Shown here piece after piece: positions 9,859 to 37,108 of a DNA stretch of 43,299 bases. Each line of letters opens with the position of its first letter. The stretch's first letter is position 1. The position numbers were made by a program, and so were the translations under genes. The stretch covers positions 1 to 43,299 of the forward strand of contig CAYQEW010000001.1 in assembly GCA_964416605.1 (NCBI GenBank), in the 5' to 3' direction. The notes below the pieces were generated by a model. It did no database searches, was not told where the DNA came from, and was given only the letters and a program-made list of their open reading frames with translations. The stretch is from an uncultured Bacteriovoracaceae bacterium (GTDB lineage: Bacteria > Bdellovibrionota > Bacteriovoracia > Bacteriovoracales > Bacteriovoracaceae).

Positions 9859-9860
9859 AC

Positions 9861-16605: not shown

Positions 16606-16608
16606 TGA

Positions 16609-16811: not shown

Positions 16812-16895
16812 GCTGGCGTGGTGGAATGGTAGACACGTGCGCTTGAGGTGCGTATGGAGCAATCTGTGGAGGTTCAAGTCCTCTCGCCAGCACCA
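16812..16895 (+). tRNA. tRNA-Leu (anticodon GAG), CCA encoded
   Basis: Acceptor stem gctggcg/cgccagc, 3-bp D stem, anticodon stem tgcgc/gcgta with loop TTGAGGT, long variable arm, T arm ggagg-ttcaagt-cctct, and 3' ACCA. Confidence 0.9.
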
Positions 16896-19327: not shown

Positions 19328-19441
19328 AATCTCTCCAAAGTGACTCTTATTTGAGGCGTTTTATTTTATATCGTCCTAAAATATCCTTTAATTAAGTTAA
19401 AATTATTTTTTCTCCGATAATGAACCTTGAAAGAGGTGCGT

Positions 19442-21028
19442 ATGTTTAAAATCATTCCTTTATTATTTCTCTTTATCTTTGCCAGTTGCGGAGATAATGC
19501 CAATGTGGGCATTAATCCCAATCAACCAACTCTTAAACCTTCTTCTTTAGCTTTGCCTTCTAGCGCTGATGCTCTAGATGATGCTCTCTCTGTCGAACAA
19601 GGAAGCTCTTCTGCGATCAACGTTCTTATTAATGATGTTATCAAAGACATTGATAACGAAAGCTTAGTCATCACCAAAGAAATAAATGCGGACTGTTCGA
19701 TTGTGAATGGAGAGGTATCGATTAACACAGCGACAAGTACTGTCGGTGCAGCTAGTTGTGAGTATCAAATTTGTAATAAAGACAAAGTATGTGATCAGGC
19801 GAATATAAATATTAATATTTATTCACCTGCCTCTCCTGATCTATTGCTAACCAAAAAAGTAGATAAGTCTTCAGCAATTGTTGGGGATAATGTTGTCTTC
19901 ACCCTCACCGTCAAAAACAACGGTCCAACTAATGCAACGGGTGTCAGTGTTACAGATATTCTTCCTAACACGCTCCAATTTATTTCTAGTAGTTCCAGCG
20001 CTTATAATCAGACAACAGGAGTTTGGACAATTGGTTCTCTGAGTAGTGGCGCTTCTGTCTCGTTAACAATCACTACTCAGATTCTCGCCTCAGCATCTGG
20101 ATCACTTATTACCAATACTGCGACCAATCTTCACTGTGATCAAGGAGACGCCAATAGTTCTGCGGACACACCAAGTGCCACAGTAAGCGTTGGGAGCCTT
20201 TCTCCTGACCTTCAAGTTACAAAAGAATTAGGAACAGCAGAACTTATTTTTCCCACTGGTTCTGAGGATCCTGACTATACTTATGCGACAGCCGGAACAA
20301 ACATAAGTTACAAAATAACAATTAAAAACAATGGGCCCGTCAATGCAACACTTGTTTCTTTAACAGACAAATTACCTAGCACTCTTGAGTTTATTTCTAG
20401 CAACTCTTCCAAAGGATCTTATTCAGCAGTATCTGGTATATGGAATATTGGTTCTCTAGGTAATGGAGAATCTGCCACTCTCACACTCACAGCAAAAATC
20501 ATTGTTTCCGCCTCTATTAACGGGGCTACTATTATCAATACGGTCACCAATGTCACTTCTCAAAATGGTGATAGTAATTTATCTGCCGATGATTTAATTG
20601 AAAGTGTGAGAATTGAGACATTGGCTCCTGCTTTGATTTTAAATAAAACGGTGAGCAATCCAAATCCTCAATTAGTCTATTCTCCTGCAGTACCGACACC
20701 GTTCTTCTATACCATTACAGTTAGAAACCTAAGTCAGGTAGAAACAACTGGTGTCAAAGTTACAGATCTTTTGCCAAGTGGCATCGTCTATCAATCAAGT
20801 TCGGCTTCTCATGGAAGCTATAATAACACTACTGGCCTATGGTCTATTGGCACACTTAACTCAAATGAAACAGCTTCTCTGCAAATTAATGTCACCCTCA
20901 ACTCAAGCCCTGTTTTTTGGGCAAGTCATATTTTTAGAATAACTAATTGGGTGACCAATCCAACGTCAGAGCAAGGAAATAATAATTTGTACCAAACTGC
21001 TTCTGCAACGATCAATGTGGTGCCTTAA
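19442..21028 (+). CDS. surface lipoprotein: cadherin/Ig-like N-terminal domain + three DUF11 (conserved repeat domain) units
   Basis: SD AAGAGG precedes the ATG at 19442. Lipobox FASC. N-terminal domain is DDALSVEQGSSSAINVLINDV...CEYQICNKDKVCDQANININI. Three repeats of about 125-135 aa carry (V/I)KNNGP.NATGV.VTD.LP..L.F(I/V)SS...G.Y...TG.W.IG.L..G. Confidence 0.75.
   Translation: MFKIIPLLFLFIFASCGDNANVGINPNQPTLKPSSLALPSSADALDDALSVEQGSSSAINVLINDVIKDIDNESLVITKEINADCSIVNGEVSINTATSTVGAASCEYQICNKDKVCDQANININIYSPASPDLLLTKKVDKSSAIVGDNVVFTLTVKNNGPTNATGVSVTDILPNTLQFISSSSSAYNQTTGVWTIGSLSSGASVSLTITTQILASASGSLITNTATNLHCDQGDANSSADTPSATVSVGSLSPDLQVTKELGTAELIFPTGSEDPDYTYATAGTNISYKITIKNNGPVNATLVSLTDKLPSTLEFISSNSSKGSYSAVSGIWNIGSLGNGESATLTLTAKIIVSASINGATIINTVTNVTSQNGDSNLSADDLIESVRIETLAPALILNKTVSNPNPQLVYSPAVPTPFFYTITVRNLSQVETTGVKVTDLLPSGIVYQSSSASHGSYNNTTGLWSIGTLNSNETASLQINVTLNSSPVFWASHIFRITNWVTNPTSEQGNNNLYQTASATINVVP
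19835..21025 (+). repeat. three tandem intragenic DUF11 coding repeats
   Basis: Units begin PDLLLTK, PDLQVTK and PALILNK. Each contains the NNGP/TD.LP/G.W.IG.L blocks. Confidence 0.7.
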
Positions 21029-21121
21029 ATAAAAGGCGCCATGTTCCCATAAGAAACTCTTTTTCTCTTTATTTAATTTTTTTTTACTTTTCGCCGATAA
21101 TTAAACTTGAAAGAGGTGCGT

Positions 21122-24100
21122 ATGCTAAAGTTTTTATCTGTCCTATTTATGCTGATTCTGACGAGTTGTGGAGACAATGCCAATGTGAGCATTAATCCCA
21201 ACCAATCCAACTTAAAACCATCTTCTCCGCTTGTCACTCCTGCCAAAGTAAGTGCGGCTGATGATACCACTTCTGTTGAGCAAGGTTCTTCCTCTCAGAT
21301 TGATGTCCTAAACAACGATACAATTGATGACAGCAGTCCAACTGTCACAATTATAAATCAAAACAATGTCAGTTGTTCTATTGTCAGCAATCAAGTTGTA
21401 GTGAGTACCGCCTCTAGTTCAGTCGGCGCTGGTTTATGTGTTTATCAAGTATGTGATTCTCATAACAACTGTGATCAAGCTAATATTCATATCAATATTT
21501 TCACTCCAGCTTCTCCGGACTTACAAGTCTCTAAGTCTGCAAACAGTGCTTCTGCCACAGTTGGATCAAATGTTGTATTCACTCTTGCAATCAAAAATAA
21601 TGGGCCCGTAAATGCTACTAGTGTGGCTCTTACGGACCTTCTTCCTTCTTCTTTGCAGTATGTTTCGAGTGCTGCCTCTATTGGATCATATAATTCGACA
21701 AATGGTTTATGGTCTGTGGGAAGTCTGGCAAATGGTGCAACTGCTACTCTATCTATTACGGCTAAAGTTCTTGCTGCAGCTTCTGGCACAAGTGTGACAA
21801 ATGCCATCACAAATGTAACTTCGGCAAATGGTGATTCCAATGGCTCTACGGATGATAATACTGCTACGATCAGTGTACCTGTCGCAGCTCCTGATCTTGT
21901 TGTCACTAAATCAGTTACTCAAACCGTTGTGAGGGCAGGTGAAAGTTTTGCACGAGTGGGAGATACCCTTATTTACACTCTTACAATTCACAATAATGGA
22001 CCGACCGATGCCACGGGCGTTGCTCTAACGGATATACTCCCTAATGGCATTCAATATATTTCAAGTGTTGCGTCTCTTGGAAGCTACAACTCCTCTTCCG
22101 GTTTATGGAGTGTTGGATCTTTAGCTAATAGCGCTACTGCTCAATTGACAATCACCACTAAGATTTTACCTTCTGCGCTTGTTATGAATGACATACAATA
22201 TTATAAAAATATTGTTCAAAATTTTGTTTCTTCACTTTTCATGTCCACTGCATATGGCGCAGCTCACATTGTCACCAACACAATTACCAACGTAACTTCT
22301 AATCAAGGTGACTCAAATACTTCTGTGGATGACAATACCGCTTCAATTGCTGTAGCAGTAGCCATCAATGATATTCAAGTTTCTAAAGCAGTGAATCTTT
22401 CCTCTGCAATAGTTGGAAGCAATGTCATTTTTACTCTTACTGCAAAAAATAATGGGCCTACTGACAGTGGGGATGTCTCACTTACAGATATCCTTCCTTC
22501 AACATTGCAATTTATTTCAAGCACACCTTCTCAAGGAACTTATGACAGTACTTCAGGAGTTTGGCTAGTTGGTACACTTATCAATGGTGCTTCAGCAACG
22601 CTTTCAATTACCGCGAAGATTCTTCCTGCCGCTTCTGGAACAAGTGTGACAAATACCATCACCGCGGTTAGTTCAAGCAATGGAGACAGCAATGCTTCCG
22701 CGGATGATAATACTGCAATTATTAATGTACCAATTGCCGTAACTGTTAATGCGGTTGATGATTCCTACAATGCGGGCCACAATATTCTTTCAAGTCTCAA
22801 TGTTTTATCTAACGATACATTTAATGTATCGAGTGGCACAGTCTCTATTGTGTCAGGATCAAATGGAACTTGTACTTGGAATTCAACAACTCATTTAATT
22901 AATTTTTTACCAACTCTAGGATTTTCAGGAAGCGCTAATTGTATTTATCAAATCTGCCAAGGATCAACCTGTGACACTGCAACGGCAACTATCAATGTCG
23001 CAGCTTTTCAAACACACGTTGGGCCGAACCAACCCATCGGTTGTACCAATGTTTCTCAGTACTATCCAGCTAGCGCTCTTCCAACAACCTATAACGCTAT
23101 TGGATTAGGAACCGTTGCAAGTCCTTATATTATATATACTCCAGCACAACTTGCTCATCTAGCCAGTATTTCAACGAATATGAATTCTACTCGAAAAGAT
23201 TTTAGCATTAGAAGTAATATTGATTTTGCTCCTTTTTATACAGCAGGAGGAAGTGAATTTTCTATTCCCAATAACCCTAATATACAATTAGATCAGCTTG
23301 TTGTTTGGGGAAATAACTGTCTCCTACAAAATTTTAAAGAGACCTCGAATGGAACAAGAAGTTATGGTGGGCTTTTTGGAAAGATATCAGGAGAGGCTAA
23401 ATTTTATAATGTGCGTATGAGAAACACTACGCTAGAAAATCATAAAGGAAATGTGGGATCTCTTGTAGGATCCGTTGCTCAATCAGTCATCTCTGATAGT
23501 TCTTCAAGTAATCTCGTTATTAAAGCGAATTTAAATTTTCCTTATGCTCCTTTTGGCACAACGATCATTGGTGGTATCCTAGGCTACAGTGATCGTGGTT
23601 CTCAAATTTGGAATACTTTTGCCTGTGGAGAAATATCATCTCTTAGTGCGAAAATGGGGGGAATTGCTGGATCCTTTGGAGACACTGGAGCTGGCGAGAT
23701 CTTTGATACTTATTTTAAAGGAAAGCTAGATAATATTAAAAACCTTAAGATGGCGGGGATTTTAGCAGAAGCTTCTGACACTATTATTTATACCTCACCA
23801 GTTATAAAAAACAGTTATTCTGTGGGGAAAATTATTTCAACAGGTGTTGGCGCTGCTCCTGGATCAGGGAGCACAACAAACTATGCAGCGGGTATTAGTA
23901 CAGCAGGAAATGAAAAAAGTGATGGACAACTTACCTCTAAATCTGTCTTTACGACAATGTATGTTGATACAGCTCTTTCTGATGCCGCGAGTTACAGTGC
24001 CCCCATTAATACTAATGATGGGGTAAGTGGAGGTTATTTTCAAAGCAGTATTTGCTCTACACCAATAAAAAACTGTCGAACAAATAGTTTAGATGCACCA

Positions 24101-24235
24101 GTGACATCTCCTCTTAGTTATTTTTACAATATGGCAAATGCTCCAATGAATACATGGGGTTCTCAATGGACAGCCACAACAACTTTTCCAACTCTGGCTC
24201 CTGGTGATCCATGTGACAGTTACGTTGTGCCATAA
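21122..24235 (+). CDS. large surface lipoprotein: cadherin/Ig-like domain + three DUF11 units + second cadherin/Ig-like domain + C-terminal GLUG-like beta-helical domain
   Basis: The leader, SD and signal peptide are paralogous to the preceding gene. Lipobox LTSC. The second Ig-like domain is VNAVDDSYNAGHNILSSLNVLSNDT...CIYQICQGSTCDTATATINV. The C-terminal roughly 400 aa carry repeated G-G-(L/I)-(F/V/A/L)-G motifs (YGGLFGKI, VGSLVGSV, IGGILGYS, MGGIAGSF, MAGILAEA). Confidence 0.75.
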   Translation: MLKFLSVLFMLILTSCGDNANVSINPNQSNLKPSSPLVTPAKVSAADDTTSVEQGSSSQIDVLNNDTIDDSSPTVTIINQNNVSCSIVSNQVVVSTASSSVGAGLCVYQVCDSHNNCDQANIHINIFTPASPDLQVSKSANSASATVGSNVVFTLAIKNNGPVNATSVALTDLLPSSLQYVSSAASIGSYNSTNGLWSVGSLANGATATLSITAKVLAAASGTSVTNAITNVTSANGDSNGSTDDNTATISVPVAAPDLVVTKSVTQTVVRAGESFARVGDTLIYTLTIHNNGPTDATGVALTDILPNGIQYISSVASLGSYNSSSGLWSVGSLANSATAQLTITTKILPSALVMNDIQYYKNIVQNFVSSLFMSTAYGAAHIVTNTITNVTSNQGDSNTSVDDNTASIAVAVAINDIQVSKAVNLSSAIVGSNVIFTLTAKNNGPTDSGDVSLTDILPSTLQFISSTPSQGTYDSTSGVWLVGTLINGASATLSITAKILPAASGTSVTNTITAVSSSNGDSNASADDNTAIINVPIAVTVNAVDDSYNAGHNILSSLNVLSNDTFNVSSGTVSIVSGSNGTCTWNSTTHLINFLPTLGFSGSANCIYQICQGSTCDTATATINVAAFQTHVGPNQPIGCTNVSQYYPASALPTTYNAIGLGTVASPYIIYTPAQLAHLASISTNMNSTRKDFSIRSNIDFAPFYTAGGSEFSIPNNPNIQLDQLVVWGNNCLLQNFKETSNGTRSYGGLFGKISGEAKFYNVRMRNTTLENHKGNVGSLVGSVAQSVISDSSSSNLVIKANLNFPYAPFGTTIIGGILGYSDRGSQIWNTFACGEISSLSAKMGGIAGSFGDTGAGEIFDTYFKGKLDNIKNLKMAGILAEASDTIIYTSPVIKNSYSVGKIISTGVGAAPGSGSTTNYAAGISTAGNEKSDGQLTSKSVFTTMYVDTALSDAASYSAPINTNDGVSGGYFQSSICSTPIKNCRTNSLDAPVTSPLSYFYNMANAPMNTWGSQWTATTTFPTLAPGDPCDSYVVP
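21515..22741 (+). repeat. three tandem intragenic DUF11 coding repeats (the middle unit carries an insertion of about 30 aa)
   Basis: Units begin PDLQVSK (21515), PDLVVTK (21890) and NDIQVSK (22367). Confidence 0.7.
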
Positions 24236-25591: not shown

Positions 25592-27151
25592 ATGTGTGGT
25601 CTAATGATCTCCCCTGTGCACTGGCAGAATAAACAAGAAAAAAAGACACTCTCTCATCGAGGGCCTGATCAAATCAATCATCTCAAAACAAATTATTTTT
25701 CAATGGACTTTTATCGTCTCGCCATCATGGATCTTTCTCCGCTTGGAATGCAACCCTTTGAGTCTGAAAAAAACTTAGCCCTTTGTAATGGTGAAATTTA
25801 TAATTTTGAATCTTTGCAAAAAGAACTGACGAATTTTATTCCTAAATCTCATTCTGACTGCGAATTTCTTGTTCATTATTTTGAAACCTTTGGAGCTGAG
25901 CGCTTGTGCCAAAAACTAGATGGAGAATATGCTCTCGTTATAGCTAGCAAAAACTCTTCTGACATATTTGCAACCAGAGATCCTTTAGGAGTACGGCCTC
26001 TTTTTTATATTGAGCACAATAATGAAATTGCTTTTGCCTCAGAAGTAAAATCGCTGATGCATCTTGAGGGAACCATTAAGCCTTTTCCTCCTGGACATTA
26101 TTATTTCAATAAAAAATTTATTCCTTACTTTCATTTTCCTAAAACTCACATCTCTCCTCATTTAGATTCTATTTTCAAAAACATTCATGACTTACTCTAT
26201 AGCGCAGTCGAAAAAAGATTGCACGCCGATGCGCCGCTTGGCTTTTTACTCAGTGGTGGAGTTGACTCCAGTCTGGTTTGTGCCATCGCTTCGCGTGTGC
26301 TCAAAAAACCGCTTGAAACTTTTTCCGTGGGACTCAATGTTGACCCTATTGATTTAAAATACGCCAAAATGGTCGCTGATCATATTGGCTCAAATCATCA
26401 TGAAATTATTTTTACGACGCAGGAAGCGATTGCTCATGTCCCAGAACTCATTAAGCAACTAGAAACTTTTGATATCACAACTATTCGCGCCTCTATTGGA
26501 ATGTCTCTTTTATGCAAGGCTATTCGTGCCAAAACAAGTATCAAAGCTCTTCTCACTGGCGAAGTCAGCGATGAATTATTTGGTTATAAATACACCGACT
26601 TTGCTCCCAGTGCAGAAGAATTTCAAAAAGAATCTTTAAAAAGAATCAAAGAATTATTTGTTTACGATATTTTAAGAGCTGATCGCTGCATTGCTTTTCA
26701 TAGTCTTGAAGCGCGTGTGCCTTTTAGCGACAAGCAATTTGTTGAGTATGTTCTCTCTCTCGATCCACAGCTTAAAATGAATACCTACAATATGGGTAAA
26801 TACCTGCTTCGCAAATCTTTTGATCATTCAGATTATCTACCTCATGAGATTTTATATCGCGACAAAGCTGCTTTTTCTGATGCCGTCGGACACTCCATGG
26901 TCGATGAACTCAAAAAATATGCCGACAATAAATACAGCGATGAAGATTTAAAAAAGGCTCAAACGAAATACTCTCACTGCCCTCCGATTAGCAAAGAGTC
27001 TCTTTGGTATCGAGAAATTTTTGAGAGCTTTTATCCCGAAAAATCCTATCTTATTCCTAGTTTTTGGATGCCCAATCAAACTTGGCAAAACTGCAATGTG
27101 AATGATCCCTCGGCGAGAGTGCTCGCTAATTATGGTAAAAGTGGGGAGTGA
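25592..27151 (+). CDS. asnB: asparagine synthetase (glutamine-hydrolysing)
   Basis: N-terminal MCG (Cys2 nucleophile), a GATase-2 domain and the PP-loop LLSGGVDSSLV. Confidence 0.85.
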   Translation: MCGLMISPVHWQNKQEKKTLSHRGPDQINHLKTNYFSMDFYRLAIMDLSPLGMQPFESEKNLALCNGEIYNFESLQKELTNFIPKSHSDCEFLVHYFETFGAERLCQKLDGEYALVIASKNSSDIFATRDPLGVRPLFYIEHNNEIAFASEVKSLMHLEGTIKPFPPGHYYFNKKFIPYFHFPKTHISPHLDSIFKNIHDLLYSAVEKRLHADAPLGFLLSGGVDSSLVCAIASRVLKKPLETFSVGLNVDPIDLKYAKMVADHIGSNHHEIIFTTQEAIAHVPELIKQLETFDITTIRASIGMSLLCKAIRAKTSIKALLTGEVSDELFGYKYTDFAPSAEEFQKESLKRIKELFVYDILRADRCIAFHSLEARVPFSDKQFVEYVLSLDPQLKMNTYNMGKYLLRKSFDHSDYLPHEILYRDKAAFSDAVGHSMVDELKKYADNKYSDEDLKKAQTKYSHCPPISKESLWYREIFESFYPEKSYLIPSFWMPNQTWQNCNVNDPSARVLANYGKSGE

Positions 27152-27797
27152 GGATATCCTCATAGAAAACCCCAAACTCTCCAGAAGAATGAAGTAGATG
27201 AAGCTCGAGCACCCAAAGATTTTCAATCGGTTTTTTTTCAAAACCTGCTAATGAACCTTTGTGATAAAGGGCATGAGGAAAATCTCCCAAACGATGGCCT
27301 ACCATTTTATCATTCAGAAAATAATTTTTTAGCTTTGCTAACTCTTGAGCTCTTTCATAGAGATTTATGCCAGAGAGGTTTTCTTGTTTCCATAAGTTTT
27401 GTAATGTAAAAAAAATTTCGCAAACATCCTCAATCATTTTTTGCGCTTGATCGTTTTTGCCATGGACATAACTTCTGCCAATATCTGTTTCATACCCATC
27501 TATTACGGCACCTAAATCAATAAAATAAATGTCATTTTCTTTGAGGATAATTCCTTCTTCAGAAATTTCCTTAAAAGACTTTTGAGTATTAGAAGCGATT
27601 CTCAATTTAGTGGGATGCCAAAGTTTTTGAACACCATTTTGATAACAAAGATTTTCGAGAAGCTCTATTCCTTCCTTTTCACTTATACCTGTTGGTATTT
27701 GAGCTGCAAAAAGATCTATCAGGCCCAGCACTTTTTCGCGTGCTTTTAAATAATCATTGAGGCAAAATCCTTTTCCCACTTGTTCTCTAATATCCAT
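27126..27797 (-). CDS. M24-family (pita-bread fold) metallopeptidase-like protein, catalytic domain only
   Basis: 223 aa. DIYFIDLGAVIDGYETDIGRSYV (paired Asp metal ligands) and GHRLG resemble the catalytic domain of Xaa-Pro/Met aminopeptidases. Confidence 0.55.
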   Translation of the reverse strand: MDIREQVGKGFCLNDYLKAREKVLGLIDLFAAQIPTGISEKEGIELLENLCYQNGVQKLWHPTKLRIASNTQKSFKEISEEGIILKENDIYFIDLGAVIDGYETDIGRSYVHGKNDQAQKMIEDVCEIFFTLQNLWKQENLSGINLYERAQELAKLKNYFLNDKMVGHRLGDFPHALYHKGSLAGFEKKPIENLWVLELHLLHSSGEFGVFYEDILTPHFYHN

Positions 27798-28413
27798 AAA
27801 AAACCTTTTGAAAATTACTTTCTATTTGCAAAACCAAGTCTTTCACTTCCCCATTCAAGCGACGAGAATACTCAGCATAAACTTCTTGAATCGAAGTATC
27901 ATAGTCATCTGTTTCCAGAAAAACTCTATTAATTGGATAGGCTCTTAGTTTAGTTAAAGACATTTTACTTATTTGTTTAAAAGAAAAAGAAAAATACACA
28001 TCGCTTTTAAAAAGATTTTGAATACTAGGATTCTCACCACAATGATGAAAAATAAGAGGTGATGTTATTTTATATTTTTTAAAGTAAAAAGCTAAGTCAC
28101 TTGCAGCTCGCACACAATGGACAATAATCGGCTTAGGATTCTCTGCAATAAACTCTAATTGCTTTTGCAAAATATCAATTTGCTGATCCCAGTTTTCCTT
28201 TCGCACTCGATCAAGTCCCAATTCTCCATAAGCAAGAAAAAAAGGATCCTGTAAACATTCTGTGAAAAATATTTTTTGAGAGGTATGCCACGGATGAATT
28301 CCATAAGAATAATAAAAATTATTCCTTAGGGATAAATCATCAATACTATTTACGGTGAAAATATTCTCTGATTTTTCTTTTAAATGGTGTGAATGAGTAT
28401 CAATAAACTTCAT
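27787..28413 (-). CDS. TatD-family metal-dependent hydrolase
   Basis: FIDTHSHH, YGIHPW, GELGLD and IIVHCVRA are present. Confidence 0.75.
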   Translation of the reverse strand: MKFIDTHSHHLKEKSENIFTVNSIDDLSLRNNFYYSYGIHPWHTSQKIFFTECLQDPFFLAYGELGLDRVRKENWDQQIDILQKQLEFIAENPKPIIVHCVRAASDLAFYFKKYKITSPLIFHHCGENPSIQNLFKSDVYFSFSFKQISKMSLTKLRAYPINRVFLETDDYDTSIQEVYAEYSRRLNGEVKDLVLQIESNFQKVFYGY

Positions 28414-29143
28414 TTTTCTTCACCAGATAATCCAAAACATAAGAAGCTGCATGCAAGCCAAAAGCCCCTGTCACACAGGAGCTAGAGCCCAAACCTTCAG
28501 TACATGACTTACGCTCACAGATTTCCTCTGAACTAAATAGCGATTCTTCGCTTGAGCTAATACAATCCGTAAATATTTTTTTTTGCTTATAGGGCGGTAA
28601 AATTTTGTCTAATTTCATTTTTTTACGCATTCTTGCCAAAAGTTTATCATGTTCCGTGCGAGCCATATCTTTTATGGAAACAAGAGAAGGATTTTTTTTA
28701 CCTGCCGAACTTCCACTCACCAAAAGTCCTATCTTTTTCTCTGTGCATATCTTAAAAATTAAACATTTCGCTGAAAGCGAATCAATGGCATCCAAACAAA
28801 AATCAACTCCCTCCACAATCTGCTCCACATTACAAGCCGACACAAAATCATAAATAATATTAATTTTACATTGAGGATTAATGTCTTGCAGACGACTCGC
28901 AAGGACTTCTACTTTTGGTTTACCAATAGAGCTATTAAGAGCTTGCAATTGACGATTAATATTCGTCACACAAACATCATCCATATCCACAAGAGAAATG
29001 CAGCCAATACCACTGCGCACCAGAGATTCTGCTGCCCAGCTTCCAACTCCCCCTAGGCCAATGATCATGACATGAGATTTCTGAAAAATTTCAAATTTCT
29101 CCATTCCGTAAAGATGAATAATTCCTCTAAATGCTTGACTCAT
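28400..29143 (-). CDS. tcdA: tRNA threonylcarbamoyladenosine dehydratase (ThiF/E1-like)
   Basis: MIIGLGGVGSWAAESLVRSGIG..SLVDMD.VCVTNINRQ matches the TcdA/CsdL Rossmann region. Confidence 0.75.
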   Translation of the reverse strand: MSQAFRGIIHLYGMEKFEIFQKSHVMIIGLGGVGSWAAESLVRSGIGCISLVDMDDVCVTNINRQLQALNSSIGKPKVEVLASRLQDINPQCKINIIYDFVSACNVEQIVEGVDFCLDAIDSLSAKCLIFKICTEKKIGLLVSGSSAGKKNPSLVSIKDMARTEHDKLLARMRKKMKLDKILPPYKQKKIFTDCISSSEESLFSSEEICERKSCTEGLGSSSCVTGAFGLHAASYVLDYLVKKNEVY

Positions 29144-30035
29144 TTTTTTTATAGTTCTCTTCGATAAATTTTATAATGTCACTGGCAATATTAACACCTG
29201 ATGTTTTTTCGATTCCTTCAAGACCTGGGCAAGAATTTACTTCGAGTATCATGGTCTTCTCTTTTGAACGAATCAGATCAACTCCTGCCATATTTAAACC
29301 AATTTTATTCGCGGCAAGCTTAGACATTTCCTCTTGAGAAAGACTAATTTCAATTTTTTGAGAAGTTCCTCCGCGATGAAGATTTGATCTAAAATCACCC
29401 TCTTTCGCTGTGCGCTCCATCGTGGCGATAATTTTATTTCCTAAAACAAAAACGCGAATATCACAGCCCTTTGATTCCGCAATAAATTCTTGTAGCATGA
29501 TATTTGTTTTTAAACTAAGAAGAGTTTCAACAACCGAATAAGCCGATTTTTCAGATTCCGCAAGCACTGTACCAATTCCCTGCATACCTTCTAAGAGCTT
29601 AACGACAACAGGTGCCCCACCCAAAGACTGAATATTGCTTTCAACATTTAAGGCATTATGAGACACAATAGAGTTAGGAAAAGGTAATTGATTCTGCGCC
29701 AAAATTTGCATGGTGCGAAGTTTGTCGCGAGCATTCAGAATGCCTTGAGAAGAATTTAAAGTAAAAATACCCATCGCCTCAAATTGCCTCACAACCGCTA
29801 TGCCATAAAAATTTGTTTCGACACTAATACGTGGAATAATCGCATCTAAAACACTCAGTGATTCTCCTTGATAAAAAATATCGCATTGATCACTCGAAAT
29901 TTTTAAATCACAATTTACATAATCAATTGGAAATATTTCATGGCCCGCGCGAACCGCCTCATTGGCAATACGCGAGTTGCTGTAATTAAGTGAGTTGCGA
30001 CAAAGCAAACCAATTTTCAATTTATTCATAGGCAT
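29127..30035 (-). CDS. rimK: RimK-family ATP-grasp alpha-L-glutamate ligase
   Basis: 302 aa. VVVKLLEGMQGIGTVL, DIRVFVLGNK, FRSNLHRGG and LEVNSCPGLEGIE follow the RimK pattern. Confidence 0.85.
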   Translation of the reverse strand: MPMNKLKIGLLCRNSLNYSNSRIANEAVRAGHEIFPIDYVNCDLKISSDQCDIFYQGESLSVLDAIIPRISVETNFYGIAVVRQFEAMGIFTLNSSQGILNARDKLRTMQILAQNQLPFPNSIVSHNALNVESNIQSLGGAPVVVKLLEGMQGIGTVLAESEKSAYSVVETLLSLKTNIMLQEFIAESKGCDIRVFVLGNKIIATMERTAKEGDFRSNLHRGGTSQKIEISLSQEEMSKLAANKIGLNMAGVDLIRSKEKTMILEVNSCPGLEGIEKTSGVNIASDIIKFIEENYKKNESSI

Positions 30036-30093
30036 ACCTGCATTTTCTCGTTAAAATTTAGACACATTAAATATTAATACGGAGAAGTAGTCT

Positions 30094-31068
30094 ATGGCTA
30101 AAATCACTCAAATAAAAAATAAAGAAAGTTTAGAACTTGAACAATTAGAAGCGGGACAAATTCATCGTTTCCAACTTCATATTCCCGGTAATTCGCTCGG
30201 TACAGCTTGGAGACTTCCTATTATTGTCGCTAAAGGTGTCAAAGATGGTCCCGTCCTAGGTATCACCGCTGCAGTTCACGGCGATGAACTCAATGGTCTA
30301 TCGAGTATCTTTAAATTATTTGCAGAACTCAATCCAGAGGAAATGAGTGGCACTCTCGTGGCTGTACCTATCTATAATGTTCCAGGCTATATGAGTAAAC
30401 AACGCTATTTTATTGACCGCAATGATTTAAATCGTTTTATGCCTGGTAAAAGAAAGGGCAATCCCGCTGAAATTTATAACTATCATCTCACCCATAAAAT
30501 TATTAAAAAATTTAATTATCTTATGGATCTTCATACTGCGAGTGCTGGTAAAGTGAACAGTCTCTATATTCGTGCCGACTTAGAAAACGCTGAATGTAAA
30601 ACACTTGCCTATCTGCAAAACCCACAAATTATCGTGCAAAAATATGATGCCGAAGGAACCTTAAGAGGGTGGGCTAACACTCAAAATATTCCTAGCATCA
30701 CCGTTGAAATTGGAAACCCCAATACCTTTCAACACGATTTAATCGACGATACTCTCGATGGTATAAAAAATACGATGCGCCATCTCAAAATGATTGAGGG
30801 GCCCGTGCGCGATTTCACGGGCGATGCCACTATTTGCGATCACTCCTATTGGATTAATAGTTACAGCGGGGGCATCATTGATGTACTGCCTAAGCTCACA
30901 CAAAAAATAAAAAAAGGCGAACTCATCGCCAAAGTTTATGATGTTTTTGGCGATCTTAAAGATGAAATTTTTTCTGATCAAGATGGTGTCGTGATTGGCA
31001 AAAACACTTCTCCATCCTGCGAAGCAGGTATGCGGATTGTGCATTTGGGAGTGAACAACGAATCTTAA
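30094..31068 (+). CDS. succinylglutamate desuccinylase/aspartoacylase-family (M14-like) zinc hydrolase
   Basis: AAVHGDELNG (H-x-x-E zinc ligands) and DLHTAS. Members of this family are commonly found next to rimK. Confidence 0.75.
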   Translation: MAKITQIKNKESLELEQLEAGQIHRFQLHIPGNSLGTAWRLPIIVAKGVKDGPVLGITAAVHGDELNGLSSIFKLFAELNPEEMSGTLVAVPIYNVPGYMSKQRYFIDRNDLNRFMPGKRKGNPAEIYNYHLTHKIIKKFNYLMDLHTASAGKVNSLYIRADLENAECKTLAYLQNPQIIVQKYDAEGTLRGWANTQNIPSITVEIGNPNTFQHDLIDDTLDGIKNTMRHLKMIEGPVRDFTGDATICDHSYWINSYSGGIIDVLPKLTQKIKKGELIAKVYDVFGDLKDEIFSDQDGVVIGKNTSPSCEAGMRIVHLGVNNES

Positions 31069-31101: not shown

Positions 31102-32070
31102 TTAATATCCCAAAATATACGCAAAAATAAGTGGTGCTACAATCGTAGCATCACTTTCAATCACATACTTTGGTGTGTGGATATCAAGTTTTCCCCAAGT
31201 AATTTTTTCATTGGGAATCGCTCCAGAATAGGATCCATAACTTGTTGTAGAATCTGAAATCTGGCAAAAATAACTCCAAAAAGGAACATCGTGCATTTCC
31301 ATATCCTGATAAAGCATCGGCACCACGCAGATCGGAAAATCGCCAGCAATTCCACCACCAATTTGAAAAAAACCAATTCCCTTACCTGCGCAATTTTCTC
31401 TATACCAGTTAGCAAGCCACACCATGTACTCAATGCCTGATTTCATCGTAGAAGTTTTAAGCTCATTTTTAATACAGTAAGAAGCAAAAATATTTCCCAT
31501 GGTTGAATCTTCCCAACCTGGAACAACAATCGGCAAATTCATTTCAGCAGCTGCTAACACCCATGAGTTTTTCGGATCAATTTGATAGTATTCTTTGAGA
31601 TCACCACTCAGGAGCATTTGATACATATACTCATGAGGAAAATAACGTTCATTATTTTTATCTGCATTATTCCAACGTTTAAAAATTTGCGCCTGAATAC
31701 GGCGAAAAGCCTCTTCCTCTGGAATACAAGTATCCGTCACTCGATTTAAGCCTTTTTCTAAAAGATCCCATTCGTCCTGTGGCGTTAAATCGCGGTAGTG
31801 AGGAATGCGCTCATAGTGATCGTGCGCCACAAGGTTCATAATATCTTCTTCCAGATTTGCACCGGTGCAACTAATAATATCGATTTGTCCGGCGCGAATC
31901 ATCGGCGCCAAAATCTTTCCCATTTCCGCAGTACTCATGGCTCCTGCTAGAGTGACCATCATTTTACCGCCAGCAGTCTTATGAGCGACATAACCTTTAG
32001 CCGCATCGACAAGAGAAGCAGCATTAAAATGCAAATAATAATTTTCCATAAACTGTGAAATGGTTTTCAT
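31102..32070 (-). CDS. deoxyhypusine synthase-like protein (DHS / homospermidine-synthase-type aminobutyl transferase)
   Basis: 322 aa. TLAGAMSTAE...IISCTGANLEEDI and GGGI..DF blocks. IPNEKITWGKL aligns with the eukaryotic EAVSWGK active site and keeps the catalytic lysine. Confidence 0.8.
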   Translation of the reverse strand: MKTISQFMENYYLHFNAASLVDAAKGYVAHKTAGGKMMVTLAGAMSTAEMGKILAPMIRAGQIDIISCTGANLEEDIMNLVAHDHYERIPHYRDLTPQDEWDLLEKGLNRVTDTCIPEEEAFRRIQAQIFKRWNNADKNNERYFPHEYMYQMLLSGDLKEYYQIDPKNSWVLAAAEMNLPIVVPGWEDSTMGNIFASYCIKNELKTSTMKSGIEYMVWLANWYRENCAGKGIGFFQIGGGIAGDFPICVVPMLYQDMEMHDVPFWSYFCQISDSTTSYGSYSGAIPNEKITWGKLDIHTPKYVIESDATIVAPLIFAYILGY

Positions 32071-32077
32071 AAATATC

Positions 32078-32548
32078 CTATTGTAAAAATTTTCCGTAAA
32101 TTACTTTGTCATCTCCGTCGCGATAAAAATCTTTGAGACGAGCTACTTCGGTGTAACCAACCTTAAAATAAAAATGGCGAGCCGCCTCATAATCAGAGGT
32201 TCCGGAGGTTTCAGCATAAAGAGCTTTCCCGCCTTCTTCTTTAACTTTTTGCTCTGTCATGTGAATCAACTGTGAACTTAAGCCCTTGCCCTGTTGATCT
32301 TTGGCCACCGCAATCCAGTAGAGATCATATCTTTTATTCGTTAGAGGAATTTCACTAAAGCACGTATAACCGACAATGCGATCATTCTCTCTCGCGAAAA
32401 TAAAAGAATAAGCTGCGGGATCAAGAAGCGCTTCTTCTACTAATTCTTGAGCGGTTTGCACTTCAATCTCATTAAACACTTTTACTTGTGCCACCAGTTC
32501 TCTAATTTTTTCGGGATCATCTTTTTTTAACGTTGTATCAAAAATCAT
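32078..32548 (-). CDS. GNAT-family N-acetyltransferase
   Basis: 156 aa. YWIAVAKDQQGKGLSSQLI is the acetyl-CoA-binding motif A (Q/R-x-x-G-x-G/A). Its ATG overlaps the upstream stop (ATGA). Confidence 0.85.
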   Translation of the reverse strand: MIFDTTLKKDDPEKIRELVAQVKVFNEIEVQTAQELVEEALLDPAAYSFIFARENDRIVGYTCFSEIPLTNKRYDLYWIAVAKDQQGKGLSSQLIHMTEQKVKEEGGKALYAETSGTSDYEAARHFYFKVGYTEVARLKDFYRDGDDKVIYGKFLQ

Positions 32549-33475
32549 AGCGTTCCTATTTTAACAATTTTTTCAATCAGCTGATTATAGCTAATACCTT
32601 GGCGCTCTGCGGCTGCAATAAATCCTGAGTCACTGGTGATACAAGGATTAGGATTGACTTCTAAAACATAGGCTTCGTTGTTTGCATTAAGTCTAAAATC
32701 AACCCGTGCATAGCCCTTTAATCCAAAAGCGTCCCAAGATTTTCTCGCAAGATCTACCACGAACTGATACTCCTCGCCTAAGAACTCTCTCGTACTGTTT
32801 TCATACTCAAAACTTCCTTCTGTCCATTTGCAATTATAATCGACAATATGGGGTTTACCTTCTGGATAGTTAAAAACAATTTCCGAGATACCGAGCACTT
32901 CCGAATGATTTTCGGCTCCAATTAAACCAACCTGAAGCTCTCTGCCTTCAATAAATTCTTCGGCAAAAAAATCAAATCCATACTGAGTTCTTTTTTCTTC
33001 AATTTTTTGTAAAACATTATCATACCCTGTCACAATGCTCTTTTCATCAATCCCGATAGAAGCATCTTCGGCACAAGCTTTAACAATATACGTTCTCTCA
33101 TCTTTTTTAAAATCACCAGGATGATTAATCGCAAAAGACTTCATAAGAGATTTGGCAATTTTTTTATCTGCCGCTAAAGCAAGTGCGCGTGAACCATTTC
33201 CTGAAAAAGGAATTTTAAGAGCTTCTAAATAAGAAGGTATTAAATAAATAAACTGATCAGAGCCCTTAAAAGATTCTACTAAATTAAAAATAAAATCTAT
33301 CTTGTGATGACTTAAATAATCAGCCAAAAACATTGAAACAATTCTGCAAAGGCAGTTCATCGACTTGATGATGGTTTGCCTCTAAGCCCAGCCTAACTTC
33401 TTTCACTTGGACAAGTGTATCAAGATCATCTTGTCTCTCAGAGCTAGGAGCATTGTAGATAATTAAAATATTCAT
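32545..33475 (-). pseudogene. D-Ala-D-Ala-ligase-like ATP-grasp ligase, split by a 1-nt frameshift (or assembly error)
   Basis: A 51-codon N-terminal frame (33475..33320, MNILIIYNAPSSERQDDLDTLVQVKEVRLGLEANHHQVDELPLQNCFNVFG*) is followed by a 271-aa ORF in the adjacent frame. Together they align with the full-length paralogue. C-terminus ARVDFRL..NEAYVLEVNPNPCI. Confidence 0.65.
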
Positions 33476-34458
33476 GAGATCTTATAACGGTTTAGAGCTG
33501 AATCGACAATTCTCTTTATAAGTTCCTTATAAGGTAAATTGATTTGCTTACAAAGCAAAAGAAGATCCGATCGATCCGGATTTAAACCGGCGAGTGGATT
33601 GACCTCGATAAAAGAAGGAACCCCTTGAGCATTACAACGAATATCAAATCTTGCACAATCTCTAATCCCAAGAGCTTGCCAACTTTCTAGTACAAGTTTA
33701 CCCACCTCACTGGCAATGCTATCAGTCGCTAACCTGTATTCGACGAGGGTTTCACAGTTTTCTTTATTGAAGTAAGTGTGGCCTCCCACTTCTGCACCTT
33801 GTTTTAAAATAACCTCTAAAACCCCTAGCACTTGAGGGCCTCTATCCCCGCCAACTACTCCCACAGTAAATTCACGGCCCGGCAAATACTCTTCCACTAA
33901 AACGGGTTGTTTGAAATCAGCTAAAAGAACAGAAGTAACTTCTTCTAATTCTTGCTTGGTATGGACAAGTGATTTTTGCGAAACTCCTTTGCCAGTGCCT
34001 TCCGCAACTGGTTTCGCAAAAAGAGGAAAGTTAAGAGAAAGAGTACTCAGGTCATTAAGATGAGAAATTAAATGATAATGAGCAGTTGTGAGGCCACTAT
34101 CTCTTATTTGTTTTTTCGCAAGAGCCTTATTATGACAAATAATCAAGGTTTCAGTACTCGAAAAAGTGTAAGGTATTTGATAGGCGTCAAGAAGAGCGGG
34201 AACCTGTGCCTCTCTTGCAAGGCCGTGAAGTCCTTCTGCGATATTAAAAACAAGATCCCATTTTTTTCCCTGCGCGAGCAAGTTCACAAGGTTAAAAATA
34301 TTTCCTATGCGCTCTACGGTGTAGCCTAAATCTTGAAGAGTACTCTCAATTGCATGAATGGTGTCTTCTGAATCAAACTCTGCTAATTGTTCTGAGTTTA
34401 GATTGAAATTCTTATAATCTGACTTAAGATCATAAACAAATCCAATTTTAAGACTCAC
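33472..34458 (-). CDS. D-Ala-D-Ala-ligase-like ATP-grasp ligase (substrates unknown)
   Basis: 328 aa. HGLAREAQVPALLDAYQIPYTFS, KPVAEGTGKGV and ARFDIRCNAQGVPSFIEVNPLAGL follow the Ddl-family pattern. Its GTG start overlaps the kamA stop (GTGA). Confidence 0.8.
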   Translation of the reverse strand: MSLKIGFVYDLKSDYKNFNLNSEQLAEFDSEDTIHAIESTLQDLGYTVERIGNIFNLVNLLAQGKKWDLVFNIAEGLHGLAREAQVPALLDAYQIPYTFSSTETLIICHNKALAKKQIRDSGLTTAHYHLISHLNDLSTLSLNFPLFAKPVAEGTGKGVSQKSLVHTKQELEEVTSVLLADFKQPVLVEEYLPGREFTVGVVGGDRGPQVLGVLEVILKQGAEVGGHTYFNKENCETLVEYRLATDSIASEVGKLVLESWQALGIRDCARFDIRCNAQGVPSFIEVNPLAGLNPDRSDLLLLCKQINLPYKELIKRIVDSALNRYKIS

Positions 34459-35798
34459 AAATAAATTCCATTTTCACTTAAGCGACGCCCTTTTTTTCTC
34501 AACTCATTTTGCGCTTTGCCCAGATTACCCATTGGATCAGGGTAACGATAGGTTCCTCCCTCAAAATTAGTCAGGAGTAGATCATCACCATCTCTTCCCA
34601 CAATATAATCTGGAAGAAGAGGAATTTTTCCTCCACCGTTGGGAGCATCTACAACAAATTGCGGTATCGCATAACCCGTGGTGTGTCCTCGTAAGCCTTT
34701 AATAATTTCCAGGCCCTTTTCCACGGAAGTTCTAAAATGAGAAGAACCTGAAACAGGATCGCACTGATACAAATAATAAGGTTTAACCCGAGCCATCAAA
34801 AGCTTGTGCATAAGCGATTTCATCGTCTCAACATTATCGTTAATATCTTTTAACAGAACGGTTTGACTGCCTAAAGGAATCCCCGCATCAGCAAGGCGCG
34901 CAAAAGCCTCTATTGACTCCGGAGTAATCTCATCGGGGTGAGCCACGTGAATGCTCATCCAAAGCGGATGATATTTTCGTAAAATGCGAGTGAGATTTTT
35001 TGTAATACGCTGAGGCATGACAATCGGAATCTTGGTGCCAATGCGGATAAATTCCAAATGCTTTATTTTTCTTAGGCGATTCAGAAGCCAATCGAGTTTC
35101 TCATCGCCAATACTCAGCGGGTCTCCTCCCGATAAAAGGCAATCGCGAATTTCAGGGTGAGCCTCAATATATTGAGCGGCTTTTTCCCATTGAGCCGTAT
35201 TAAAACTGTATTCGCCGTTAGTTTCTCCTACCATGCGCGAGCGAGTACAGTAACGACAATAGGTAGAGCAAAAGCCCGTTGTCAAAAAGAGAACGCGATC
35301 TGGATAGCGATGAACCAGTCCCGGCGTTGCAGTATCGTGGTCTTCCCCTAACGGATCTGGATCTTCACCTGGGGTCTGAATAAATTCATCTCCTACGGGA
35401 ATATGAGTGCGTCGTAAAGACTGCATCGGATTCTTTGGATCAAGAAGAGAGAGATAATAAGGAGTAATGGCAATGGGCAGATTGGCGGTACGCTTATCGA
35501 CAGCCTTGCGCTCTTCATCCGTTAAATCAACAAAACAACTGAGGTGTTCCGTCGTTCTAATGCGATTTCTGACCTGCCACTTCCAATCATTCCAATCAGC
35601 AGAGCTAATGCCTGGGTAAAATTTTTTAATGAAGTTTTTGGTATTTTGACTTTGAGGGAATTTATTAATCAGATTTTTTGATACAGGAATATAAATGATG
35701 TTACCATCGAGAGAGCCGCACTGGGCGCTATTTTCAGCGTTTTTCTCCACCTTGCTAGGAGGCTCACCTTCTTCTATCTTTAGTTCGGAATTATTCAT
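34455..35798 (-). CDS. kamA: lysine 2,3-aminomutase family radical-SAM/PLP enzyme
   Basis: 447 aa. W.DWKWQVRNRI, the radical-SAM cluster motif CSTYCRYCTRS, LLSGGDPL and YLYQCDPV..SSHFR are KamA hallmarks. Confidence 0.9.
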   Translation of the reverse strand: MNNSELKIEEGEPPSKVEKNAENSAQCGSLDGNIIYIPVSKNLINKFPQSQNTKNFIKKFYPGISSADWNDWKWQVRNRIRTTEHLSCFVDLTDEERKAVDKRTANLPIAITPYYLSLLDPKNPMQSLRRTHIPVGDEFIQTPGEDPDPLGEDHDTATPGLVHRYPDRVLFLTTGFCSTYCRYCTRSRMVGETNGEYSFNTAQWEKAAQYIEAHPEIRDCLLSGGDPLSIGDEKLDWLLNRLRKIKHLEFIRIGTKIPIVMPQRITKNLTRILRKYHPLWMSIHVAHPDEITPESIEAFARLADAGIPLGSQTVLLKDINDNVETMKSLMHKLLMARVKPYYLYQCDPVSGSSHFRTSVEKGLEIIKGLRGHTTGYAIPQFVVDAPNGGGKIPLLPDYIVGRDGDDLLLTNFEGGTYRYPDPMGNLGKAQNELRKKGRRLSENGIYL

Positions 35799-35875
35799 TC
35801 ACTCTCCTTAATACTAAAAATTAACACTTTCTTTTTTCAGACACAATAAAAATCTTCTATTATACTGACGGCATT

Positions 35876-37108
35876 ATGATTATAAATAAAACTAAGTGGA
35901 ATCAAGTTGAACTTCATCCCACTACCCTGAAACAATTTAAAGCTGGTCATCACCTCGTTATTAAGGATCAATACACGGATCGCTTTCCCGATGATTCGAT
36001 ATTTCTTAAGACGGCTCAAATCTCTTTAAAAAAAATTTACTATACCCTTCAAGACTCGTCTCACCCTAAGGTTAAGGCAAGGCTTTGGAAGATACTTCCC
36101 TATGAAACAGAGCATCTTCCCAATATTGATTTTTACGATGAACTTGCAAAGCGTATTGCAACTAGTGTCGACAAAAGAAAGCGACTGGGTTTACTAGAAA
36201 ATCGCAATAACTTCTATCTTATATTTGGGGAGCAGGATCAACTCCCTGGTCTGCATGTTCAACTTCTTGGTGATATCGTGCTTGTACAATACTATGCCTT
36301 TTACTGGAGCCAACTCGAACAAAGTATGTATAAGGCTTTGCACCAAGCGATCAAACAATTTTTTCCCGAACTTAAAATCAAAGACTATATTCGCCAATCA
36401 AGAAATCCTGATAAAAAATCAGTATATTCAAGCCTTAAAAATAAAAATATTGAACCAACTACCATAGAAGAATTTGGCGTTAAGTTTAAAATTAAATTTA
36501 ATGAACACTACGATATCGGAATTTATACTGACATGAGCGCGATTCGCTCTGACATTATGAAAAAACTAAAACCAGAAAGCCATTTTCTCAATCTTTTTTC
36601 TTATACCGGAGCTTTTTCTTTGCAGGCAGCGAAGAAAAAGATCTACGCCACTTCCGTCGATCTTTCTAAAAAGTTTTTAGACTGGTCGGAGGAAAATCGT
36701 GCACTCAATCCTGACATTGCAGAAGACTATCTGGAAAATATCTGCGGCGATGCTTTAAAGGTAACGAGTAAATTTGCACAGGAAAAAAGAGTCTTTGATG
36801 CCATTCTTATGGATCCTCCTTCTTTTTCAAGCAATAAGAAAAAAGGCAGCAATGCTCTTGAGAGCTACAAGAGCTTTCTTCCGCTATTTGATAAAATCTT
36901 AAGTAATGACGGAAGTCTTTTTATTTTTCTCAACAATCACTCGGAAAAAAGAAAAAAATTTGAAGAAACTATTGAGAGTATTATTAAAAACAATCGCCTC
37001 AATTTTAAAATTAATAAAAAATTTAAACTTATTGATGATTGCAAACTTAATTTTCCCTACCCCGAAGCAGACTATTTAAAAGGTATTGAACTTATAAGAA
37101 ACAAATAA
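35876..37108 (+). CDS. class I SAM-dependent rRNA methyltransferase, RlmI/RlmK-like (PUA + MTase)
   Basis: 410 aa. LKQFKAGHHLV (PUA-like N-terminus), NLFSYTGAFSL and ILMDPPSFS. Confidence 0.75.
   Translation: MIINKTKWNQVELHPTTLKQFKAGHHLVIKDQYTDRFPDDSIFLKTAQISLKKIYYTLQDSSHPKVKARLWKILPYETEHLPNIDFYDELAKRIATSVDKRKRLGLLENRNNFYLIFGEQDQLPGLHVQLLGDIVLVQYYAFYWSQLEQSMYKALHQAIKQFFPELKIKDYIRQSRNPDKKSVYSSLKNKNIEPTTIEEFGVKFKIKFNEHYDIGIYTDMSAIRSDIMKKLKPESHFLNLFSYTGAFSLQAAKKKIYATSVDLSKKFLDWSEENRALNPDIAEDYLENICGDALKVTSKFAQEKRVFDAILMDPPSFSSNKKKGSNALESYKSFLPLFDKILSNDGSLFIFLNNHSEKRKKFEETIESIIKNNRLNFKINKKFKLIDDCKLNFPYPEADYLKGIELIRNK

Follow-up and report, generated by a model that had tools for sequence, protein, structure and literature searches.

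A conserved aminomutase, ATP-grasp ligase and acetyltransferase gene cassette with an appended deoxyhypusine-synthase-like gene in a Bacteriovoracaceae contig

The stretch of DNA analysed here, referred to as the window, comprises 43,299 nucleotides of an uncultured Bacteriovoracaceae bacterium (contig CAYQEW010000001.1, assembly GCA_964416605.1). The ORF listing of the window contains, at 31102-35798, five consecutive and tightly packed open reading frames (ORFs) on the minus strand. They encode a lysine 2,3-aminomutase-type enzyme (KamA), two D-alanine--D-alanine ligase (Ddl)-type ATP-grasp ligases, designated AG1 and AG2, a GNAT N-acetyltransferase, and a homolog of deoxyhypusine synthase (DHS). 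As one part of the overall explanation developed below, which on balance is the likeliest, the locus would be a composite of a conserved kamA-AG1-AG2-GNAT cassette and an appended, probably horizontally acquired speY gene. Its features are as follows.

34455-35798, minus strand: kamA, 447 amino acids (aa); lysine 2,3-aminomutase-type radical S-adenosylmethionine (SAM)/pyridoxal phosphate (PLP) enzyme; Pfam Radical_SAM and LAM_C
33472-34458, minus strand: AG1, Ddl-type ATP-grasp ligase 1, 328 aa; its GTG start overlaps the kamA stop; Pfam Dala_Dala_lig_C
32545-33475, minus strand: AG2, Ddl-type ATP-grasp ligase 2, 309 aa if intact, with a +1 frameshift here; Pfam Dala_Dala_lig_C and ATP-grasp_3
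33326-33330, minus strand: T5 homopolymer disrupting the AG2 frame, where other assemblies have T4; from pairwise alignment with L088 and L089
32078-32548, minus strand: GNAT N-acetyltransferase, 156 aa; RimI/NAT-like; Pfam Acetyltransf_1
31102-32070, minus strand: speY-type deoxyhypusine-synthase homolog (DHS-like), 322 aa; Pfam DS, 142 bits vs 27
35859-35886, minus strand: promoter-like site TTTATA-16-TATAAT upstream of kamA; consensus scan, 10/12 matches

The packing of the genes, their overlaps, the 7-nt gap, the motifs and the protein families had been described in an initial annotation of this DNA, and all of them were verified in the window and by Pfam. Start and stop codons overlap at GTGA (34455-34458) and at two ATGA sites (33472-33475 and 32545-32548), and the spacer between the GNAT stop and the DHS-like start is 7 nt long, GATATTT. 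KamA carries CSTYCRYC, the DHS-like protein ITWGK and the GNAT QQGKGL, and the Pfam matches of the five proteins are, in gene order, Radical_SAM with LAM_C, Dala_Dala_lig_C twice, Acetyltransf_1, and DS. A strong Shine-Dalgarno-like AAGGAGAG lies directly 5′ of the kamA ATG at 35798. No terminator-like sites were found between the five genes, and no riboswitch or other Rfam element was found upstream of the cassette in the window or in five other loci. The promoter-like site at 35859-35886 is weak evidence, because such sites are as many in this region as in shuffled sequence. The five genes are real and probably co-transcribed. Their arrangement goes beyond chance, since dozens of distant genomes have the first four genes in this order and the five-gene layout recurs in a diverged relative (L001, a JGI contig with ~83% nucleotide identity in AG2). 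A chimeric assembly joining speY to the cassette was ruled out, as the same layout is present in L001, L088, L089 and L090.

One feature escaped the initial annotation. Four of the ORFs are found at the coordinates it gave, but AG2 is not one open frame in the window: the ORF starting from the overlapping ATG at 33475 ends after 51 codons, and the remainder (32545-33360) is in the +1 frame. The cause of this break is one extra T in the T-run at 33326-33330, the sole difference over the gene from L088 and L089, which are independent Logan assemblies of the same organism and encode an intact AG2 of 309 aa with its start and stop overlapping the neighboring genes. In the diverged relative L001, AG2 is intact and kamA is split instead. 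Errors in assembling homopolymers, or else very recent mutations, are the apparent cause of both breaks. A programmed frameshift in AG2 was ruled out, because the extra T is missing from the two other assemblies.

Relatives of AG1 were found in at least 598 species-representative genomes when one genome per GTDB species was scanned, and the best 80 of these loci were examined for synteny by tblastn. AG1 homologs at 50-58% identity are common, and their neighborhoods show KamA-AG1-AG2-GNAT without a DHS gene. The best 80 loci are distributed over at least 14 phylum-level groups, among them Desulfobacterota (~35 loci), Planctomycetota (10), Bacteroidota (one of them the cultured Prolixibacter denitrificans DSM 27267, with locus L065 at about 437.1-440.7 kb of NZ_PYGC01000003.1), Spirochaetota, Alpha- and Gammaproteobacteria, Acidobacteriota, Fusobacteriota, Melainabacteria, Cloacimonadota and others; the carriers of the cassette are many, mostly anaerobic, bacterial lineages. 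KamA is encoded immediately upstream of AG1 in 64 of the 76 loci with room for it, AG2 lies downstream of AG1 in 67 of 72, and the GNAT gene follows AG2 in 61 loci. From the five-gene set originally taken as one unit, kamA, AG1, AG2 and GNAT thus turn out to be syntenic across these groups, but the fifth gene drops out: a DHS homolog adjoins the cassette in none of the 80 other loci, and the lone match is 26% identical, 8 kb off and on the opposite strand. When ORFs of at least 90 aa, taken from 81 loci, were clustered all against all, no further conserved neighbors came up beyond the four core genes, an accessory protein described below and shadow ORFs; in particular, no conserved transporter, regulator, carrier protein or amidotransferase partner was found beside the cassette in this clustering.

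Gene fusions tie the first three enzymes together. HMMER was run over 1.84 billion representatives and gave 575 clusters at E<=1e-30, and the top 149 representatives, which were inspected, include 16 AG1-AG2 fusions and 19 tandem AG1-like proteins, and a single fusion of KamA to AG1. Some loci (L018, L043 and L058) have only KamA and AG1 and lack the GNAT. The fusions and these KamA-AG1-only loci point to a direct action of AG1 on what KamA makes and to a partnership of AG2 with AG1; of the cassette genes, AG1 has the tightest linkage to kamA.

Several variants of the cassette were encountered. At L093 (5001-9666), a KamA-AG1 fusion of 746 aa is followed by an overlapping gene for a major facilitator superfamily (MFS) transporter and by an AG2-like gene, with transposase fragments on the flanks. 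In Planctomycetota, a CxxCxxCC (YkgJ-like) Cys-rich protein of 180-230 aa is encoded between KamA and AG1 (L024, L050, L051 and L068), and one protein of this kind forms the N-terminal part of a fusion with AG1 (P0386). In the closest non-self relative (P0122, a JGI contig, 6143-10715), a SET-domain (lysine methyltransferase-like) gene stands between KamA and AG1. Replacement of KamA by another amino-acid-modifying enzyme in KamA-less loci was considered and rejected, since the upstream genes, judged from their sequences alone, looked like unrelated housekeeping genes.

KamA is closely related to the lysine 2,3-aminomutase (LAM) of Clostridium (PDB 2A5H, E=3e-131), and passes the NCBIfam model for the KamA family (TIGR00238; 364.1 bits vs a cut-off of 199.2). 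Its best equivalog match is AblA, where it scores below the cut-off (469.2 vs 525.4), as it also does for glutamate 2,3-aminomutase (413.6 vs 650), for EpmB (255.8 vs 369.3) and for arginine 2,3-aminomutase. Among 68 cassette KamAs, C177, C181 and C184 of the CxxxCxxC motif, which is the [4Fe-4S]/SAM site, are invariant, and so are K391, R186, D347 and D384, which align with K337, R134, D293 and D330 of 2A5H. We take K337 of 2A5H to bind PLP, R134 the carboxylate, and D293 and D330 the epsilon-amine of lysine. Glutamate 2,3-aminomutase, as Ruzicka and Frey reportedly described in 2007, has Lys and Asn in place of the two Asp. The two Asp, pointed out beforehand as the residues that would separate Lys from Glu specificity, are both kept in 68/68 KamAs; KamA therefore does not have the features of a glutamate 2,3-aminomutase, and lysine is favored over glutamate. 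Because the equivalents of R134, D293, D330 and K337 and the cluster cysteines are invariant, lysine is the probable substrate, and KamA is predicted to turn L-lysine into beta-lysine. The C-terminal Zn-binding cysteines of the clostridial LAM are absent from the cassette enzymes, in which Asn, Asp or Ser occupies the position of C268 and the tail is without a Cys cluster.

For both AG1 and AG2, the closest solved relative by sequence is Ddl, and no closer structure was found by sequence for either ligase or by fold for AG1. The AlphaFold model of AG1 has a pLDDT of 90.7, and its best fold matches are Ddl with a TM-score of ~0.75-0.8. In the Ddl family model NF002378, however, AG1 and AG2 score 121 and 123 bits, respectively, about half of the cut-off of 243. 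The active sites of 73 AG1 and 60 AG2 sequences were compared with DdlB, the numbering of which was verified at E15, H63, S150, K215, Y216, R255, D257, E270, N272, S281 and L282. The equivalents of DdlB K97, K144, E180, E187, K215, R255, D257, E270 and N272, which serve ATP and Mg2+ binding and catalysis, are invariant in both groups, except in 2 of the 60 AG2 sequences, which have Asp in place of E187. The D-Ala-binding positions E15, S150, Y216 and L282, by contrast, are changed in both AG1 and AG2. The replacements at three of them are as follows.

DdlB E15 position: Ala in AG1, Asp in AG2
DdlB Y216 position: mostly Glu, or Lys, in AG1; Trp in AG2
DdlB L282 position: invariant Asp in AG1, Gly in AG2

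AG2 in addition has Cys at the position of DdlB G276. The acidic residues in the acceptor site of AG1 hint at a cationic nucleophile or acceptor.

The GNAT of the window resembles RimI/NAT enzymes and not AblB. It reaches 53.8 bits in the NCBIfam RimI model (cut-off 86.4) and a weak 29.6 bits in the AblB model (4.6e-7; cut-off 205.1), and it consists of 156 aa, compared with the 266 positions of the latter. Its best PDB match is 2R7H (E=2.7e-32), a structural-genomics entry deposited as a putative D-alanine N-acetyltransferase of the GNAT family. In 17 of the 80 loci, an accessory protein of ~600 aa is encoded that combines a GNAT-like N-terminus with a histone deacetylase (HDAC) domain. This domain is closest to acetylpolyamine amidohydrolases (APAHs; 1.6e-70), ahead of two-domain HDAC6 chains (~1e-59) and other stand-alone bacterial deacetylases (~1e-34). 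The gene for the accessory protein mostly lies between AG2 and GNAT (L008, L011, L013, L024, L025, L030, L031, L036, L049, L051, L068, L075, L077 and L084), and otherwise after GNAT (L034) or upstream of AG1 (L023 and L041); in some loci the protein is fused to the terminal GNAT, giving 750-770 aa. It is not encoded in this window. The combination recalls the acetylpolyamine amidohydrolase/SpeG cycle in that a GNAT-like plus APAH-like protein stands beside a GNAT, and differs from it in the extra GNAT-like domain fused to the accessory protein. This suggests a reversible N-acetylation of an alkyl-amine in those 17 loci.

The fifth gene has a history of its own. The DHS-like protein is 80-84% identical to its homologs, of which the named ones are almost all from Bacteroidota, and in Bacteroidota genomes the ortholog stands alone or together with an Orn/Arg decarboxylase gene and an arginase-family gene. 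The genes of L091 and L092, to which it is 81% identical, are flanked by Orn_Arg_deC and Arginase-family genes in this way. The protein agrees with 118 orthologs at 187 of 189 near-invariant columns, its catalytic-Lys motif TWGK aligns with SWGK of the archaeal DHS 7CMC, and it scores below the cut-off for deoxyhypusine synthase proper (TIGR00321; 95.4 vs 304). To our knowledge, bacteria have no IF5A. SpeY homologs of diverse phyla couple two agmatine molecules to yield N1,N9-bis(guanidino)homospermidine (G44G), a compound that dedicated ureohydrolases convert to homospermidine, and Winogradskyella algicola has a cluster of arginine decarboxylase (ADC), SpeB and SpeY whose SpeY makes G44G (Li et al., J Biol Chem 2026, PMC13625781). 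The DHS-like gene is assigned to the SpeY type because the clusters of its orthologs match the ADC-SpeB-SpeY cluster type of W. algicola. On these comparisons it is a putative speY ortholog lying outside the conserved cassette, and the claim that its enzyme belongs to one five-gene system gives way to that of a Bacteroidota ortholog, 80-84% identical, of genes in ADC/ureohydrolase clusters. What sets the window gene apart from the members of ADC-SpeY-ureohydrolase clusters, with which it shares this identity and the catalytic-Lys motif (PMC13625781), is its place behind an unrelated cassette, in a Bdellovibrionota-like genome and with no ADC or ureohydrolase in the 43-kb window. Elsewhere on the same contig, RadA (15080-16450) is 57-59% identical to its nearest named relatives (Bacteriovoracaceae, Peredibacter and Bdellovibrionota) and 66% to its closest match. 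The 80-84% identity of the DHS-like protein to Bacteroidota, as against 57-66% for RadA, is a clear sign of horizontal transfer, and the source of speY, now placed after the cassette, was most likely Bacteroidota.

From these features we infer the following pathway, product and role. KamA would convert L-lysine to beta-lysine, AG1 would form an ATP-dependent amide bond involving beta-lysine, AG2 would form a second amide bond, and the GNAT would N-acetylate a free amine, either on the substrate or on the product; in the ~20% of loci with the APAH-like deacetylase, this acetylation would be reversible. The product would be a small intracellular amide of beta-lysine, such as a beta-lysyl di- or tripeptide, an oligo-beta-lysine or a beta-lysyl-amine conjugate, and it could act as a compatible solute or as a polyamine-like polycation with its charge tuned by acetylation. 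SpeY would independently couple two agmatine molecules to G44G as a precursor of homospermidine. This explanation as a whole, namely a cassette for a beta-lysine-based, N-acetylated intracellular amide plus an independent SpeY acting on agmatine, has somewhat more in its favor than against it. An intracellular small molecule is favored because there is no conserved exporter, carrier, efp or other target-protein gene, or regulator, and because the neighbors in the window, which include RadA, a signal recognition particle (SRP) RNA, tRNA-Leu and RNase J, are ordinary housekeeping genes.

Known systems show parts of this scheme. In AblA/AblB of methanogens and some bacteria, a lysine 2,3-aminomutase is likewise followed by a GNAT in one operon, and the cassette product would likewise be an intracellular acetylated derivative of beta-lysine. 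The cassette differs in having two catalytically intact Ddl-type ligases between these genes, which are the best-conserved partners of KamA, in its small RimI-like GNAT, and in a KamA that lacks the C-terminal cysteine region and falls below the AblA cut-off. Ddl itself and Ddl-like pairs, such as MysC/MysD of mycosporine synthesis, share the Ddl fold and the full ATP/Mg/acyl-phosphate machinery, but in the cassette ligases the D-Ala-binding residues are replaced and the building block comes from a radical SAM aminomutase. The osmolyte or dipeptide systems for N-acetylglutaminylglutamine amide (NAGGN) and N-acetylaspartylglutamate (NAAG) consist of a GNAT plus ATP-grasp enzymes; two successive ATP-grasp ligations and an N-acetylation are common to such systems and to the proposed scheme, but the cassette has no conserved amidotransferase partner.

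Other explanations have to be weighed against this one. The AblA/AblB route alone might account for the locus, with KamA and the GNAT making N-epsilon-acetyl-beta-lysine and the Ddl-like genes being unrelated cell-wall paralogs. AblA is indeed the best NCBIfam match of KamA (469 bits), and the GNAT gives a weak AblB match (4.6e-7). This match, however, amounts to 29.6 bits against a cut-off of 205 for a protein of 156 aa against 266 positions; AG1 has the tightest link to KamA, is once fused to it and persists with it in loci without the GNAT, and neither ligase retains the D-Ala-binding residues of Ddl or scores more than about half of the Ddl cut-off, so that this route is very unlikely. A modification of proteins, in which beta-lysine, with or without a second residue, would be ligated to a protein side chain (a Lys of elongation factor P (EF-P), or a ribosomal protein) and then acetylated, deserves more attention but is still unlikely. 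KamA paralogs of the EpmB type feed EF-P beta-lysylation, ATP-grasp enzymes such as RimK modify proteins, the GNAT is most like RimI and N-terminal acetyltransferases, and the absence of a conserved exporter would fit. As in EpmB/EpmA, a KamA-family aminomutase would supply beta-lysine for a subsequent amide bond; EpmA, however, is a paralog of class II aminoacyl-tRNA synthetases, while the cassette ligases are ATP-grasp enzymes of the Ddl type, a small-substrate clade, unlike RimK, LysX and TTL. No efp, epmA or conserved candidate target gene occurs within 10 kb in 87 loci, and an EF-P query had no match in the window or in those surroundings. KamA falls under the EpmB cut-off and is nearer to AblA and to the LAMs of free lysine, and the accessory deacetylase has its nearest relatives among the enzymes for acetylpolyamines, which are small molecules. 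The EF-P alternative raised by the initial annotation has no support, given the missing efp and the EpmB score.

A secreted beta-lysine peptide, that is, an antibiotic or specialized metabolite with the GNAT and the deacetylase for self-protection or activation, as in streptothricin resistance, is quite improbable. Beta-lysine is a building block of several antibiotics, acetylation of amines is a known resistance mechanism, and one variant cassette includes an MFS transporter. The cassette is nevertheless found in at least 598 species genomes, and in at least 14 phylum-level groups for the best 80 loci, lies in housekeeping surroundings in the window and has no conserved exporter, regulator or tailoring genes; such a spread and context are what primary metabolism, and not a biosynthetic gene cluster, typically shows. 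A known anti-phage defense system was also considered and rejected, as none of the five proteins had a PADLOC match. The system of five enzymes that had first been envisaged, in which the DHS-like enzyme would add an aminobutyl or guanidinobutyl group to an amine of a beta-lysine peptide to yield a free hypusine-like metabolite, has become highly improbable. It would agree with the 7-nt spacer and the lack of a terminator between GNAT and the DHS-like gene, with the layout kept in the diverged relative L001 and in independent assemblies, with the recruitment elsewhere of a polyamine-type deacetylase by the cassette, and with the alkylation of a primary amine by SpeY-type enzymes (PMC13625781). 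But a DHS gene stands beside the cassette in none of the 80 other loci, relatives of the DHS-like enzyme work without the cassette, and the 187/189 near-invariant columns shared with stand-alone and ADC-linked orthologs give no sign of an altered substrate pocket.

Some observations weigh against the reading of the locus as a cassette for an intracellular beta-lysine amide with an independent speY. The donor and acceptor substrates of AG1 and AG2 are guesses from few residue positions, and the sole KamA-AG1 fusion could be an assembly indel at the overlapping stop and start codons. The MFS transporter inside the L093 variant hints at export in at least some lineages. As the GNAT appears closest to protein N-terminal acetyltransferases, a protein target would also be compatible with it. 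The DHS-like protein scores far below two NCBIfam models, NF001980 (117.9 vs 450) and NF002699 (88 vs 500), which are Thermus-type and 'homospermidine biosynthesis protein' models and represent other SpeY clades. Neither the 43-kb window nor L001, L088 and L089 yielded an ADC or ureohydrolase homolog, and the partners of SpeY may be encoded elsewhere in the genome. Finally, the 7-nt spacing between GNAT and speY is conserved in two diverged relatives and could reflect a functional coupling.

All component families are known, and what appears to be new is the widespread coupling of a lysine 2,3-aminomutase to two Ddl-type ligases. No published description of this gene combination was found in the full-text literature, with most subscription journals outside its coverage, and no NCBIfam equivalog or PADLOC model fits the cassette. 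Extra Ddl copies have been described in the literature on piezophilic Colwellia, with no aminomutase or acetyltransferase mentioned. The idea that the window holds an undescribed system thus seems to stand for the four-gene core, but not for the DHS-like part, which is already explained by SpeY; with this gene explained as a recently characterized polyamine enzyme, the claim made at first loses its most speculative element. The most far-reaching proposal, that the cassette makes a new class of beta-lysine oligo-amide widespread in anaerobes and that the captured SpeY adds a 4-aminobutyl or guanidinobutyl group to give the first free hypusine-like bacterial metabolite, has only the slenderest probability. 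In bacteria, beta-lysine is used in fermentation, in EF-P modification, as the osmolyte N-epsilon-acetyl-beta-lysine and in a few antibiotics. The cassette fusions indicate an additional, unstudied fate of beta-lysine in at least 598 species-level genomes. If the product were identified, anaerobes could turn out to have a new compatible solute or a new substitute for polyamines, and the AG1 and AG2 groups, both large and now annotated as 'D-alanine--D-alanine ligase', would gain a function.

A few neighboring features of the window are recorded here. An asparagine-synthase-type glutamine amidotransferase is encoded a few kb from the cassette (25592-27151, plus strand) and is kept in L001 and L088; no linkage of such an enzyme to the cassette was seen in other loci. 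Asparagine-synthase-type amidotransferases amidate the dipeptide in NAGGN synthesis. A block at 27787-31068, which abuts the DHS-like gene, encodes TatD, a TcdA-like ThiF protein, RimK and, convergently, an AstE/AspA-family deacylase (DoeB-like, 82 bits), and L001, L088 and L089, all close relatives, keep this block. An N-acetylated diamino acid is a conceivable substrate of the deacylase, which is more likely to be a partner of RimK. Two tandem plus-strand genes at 19427-21028 and 21107-24235 encode paralogous DUF11/CLIPPER-repeat proteins similar to the cysteine-rich outer membrane protein 6 of Chlamydia. A small SRP RNA (16608-16702, minus strand) and tRNA-Leu(GAG) (16812-16895, plus strand) adjoin radA (15080-16450) and mark ordinary chromosome. 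A thiamine pyrophosphate (TPP) riboswitch at 9770-9868 on the plus strand (Rfam RF00059, 63.5 bits) lies just upstream of an ORF (9861-10457) and of a gene for an ABC ATPase (10363-11772), and the region 9770-11772 may be a thiamine-related transporter operon.

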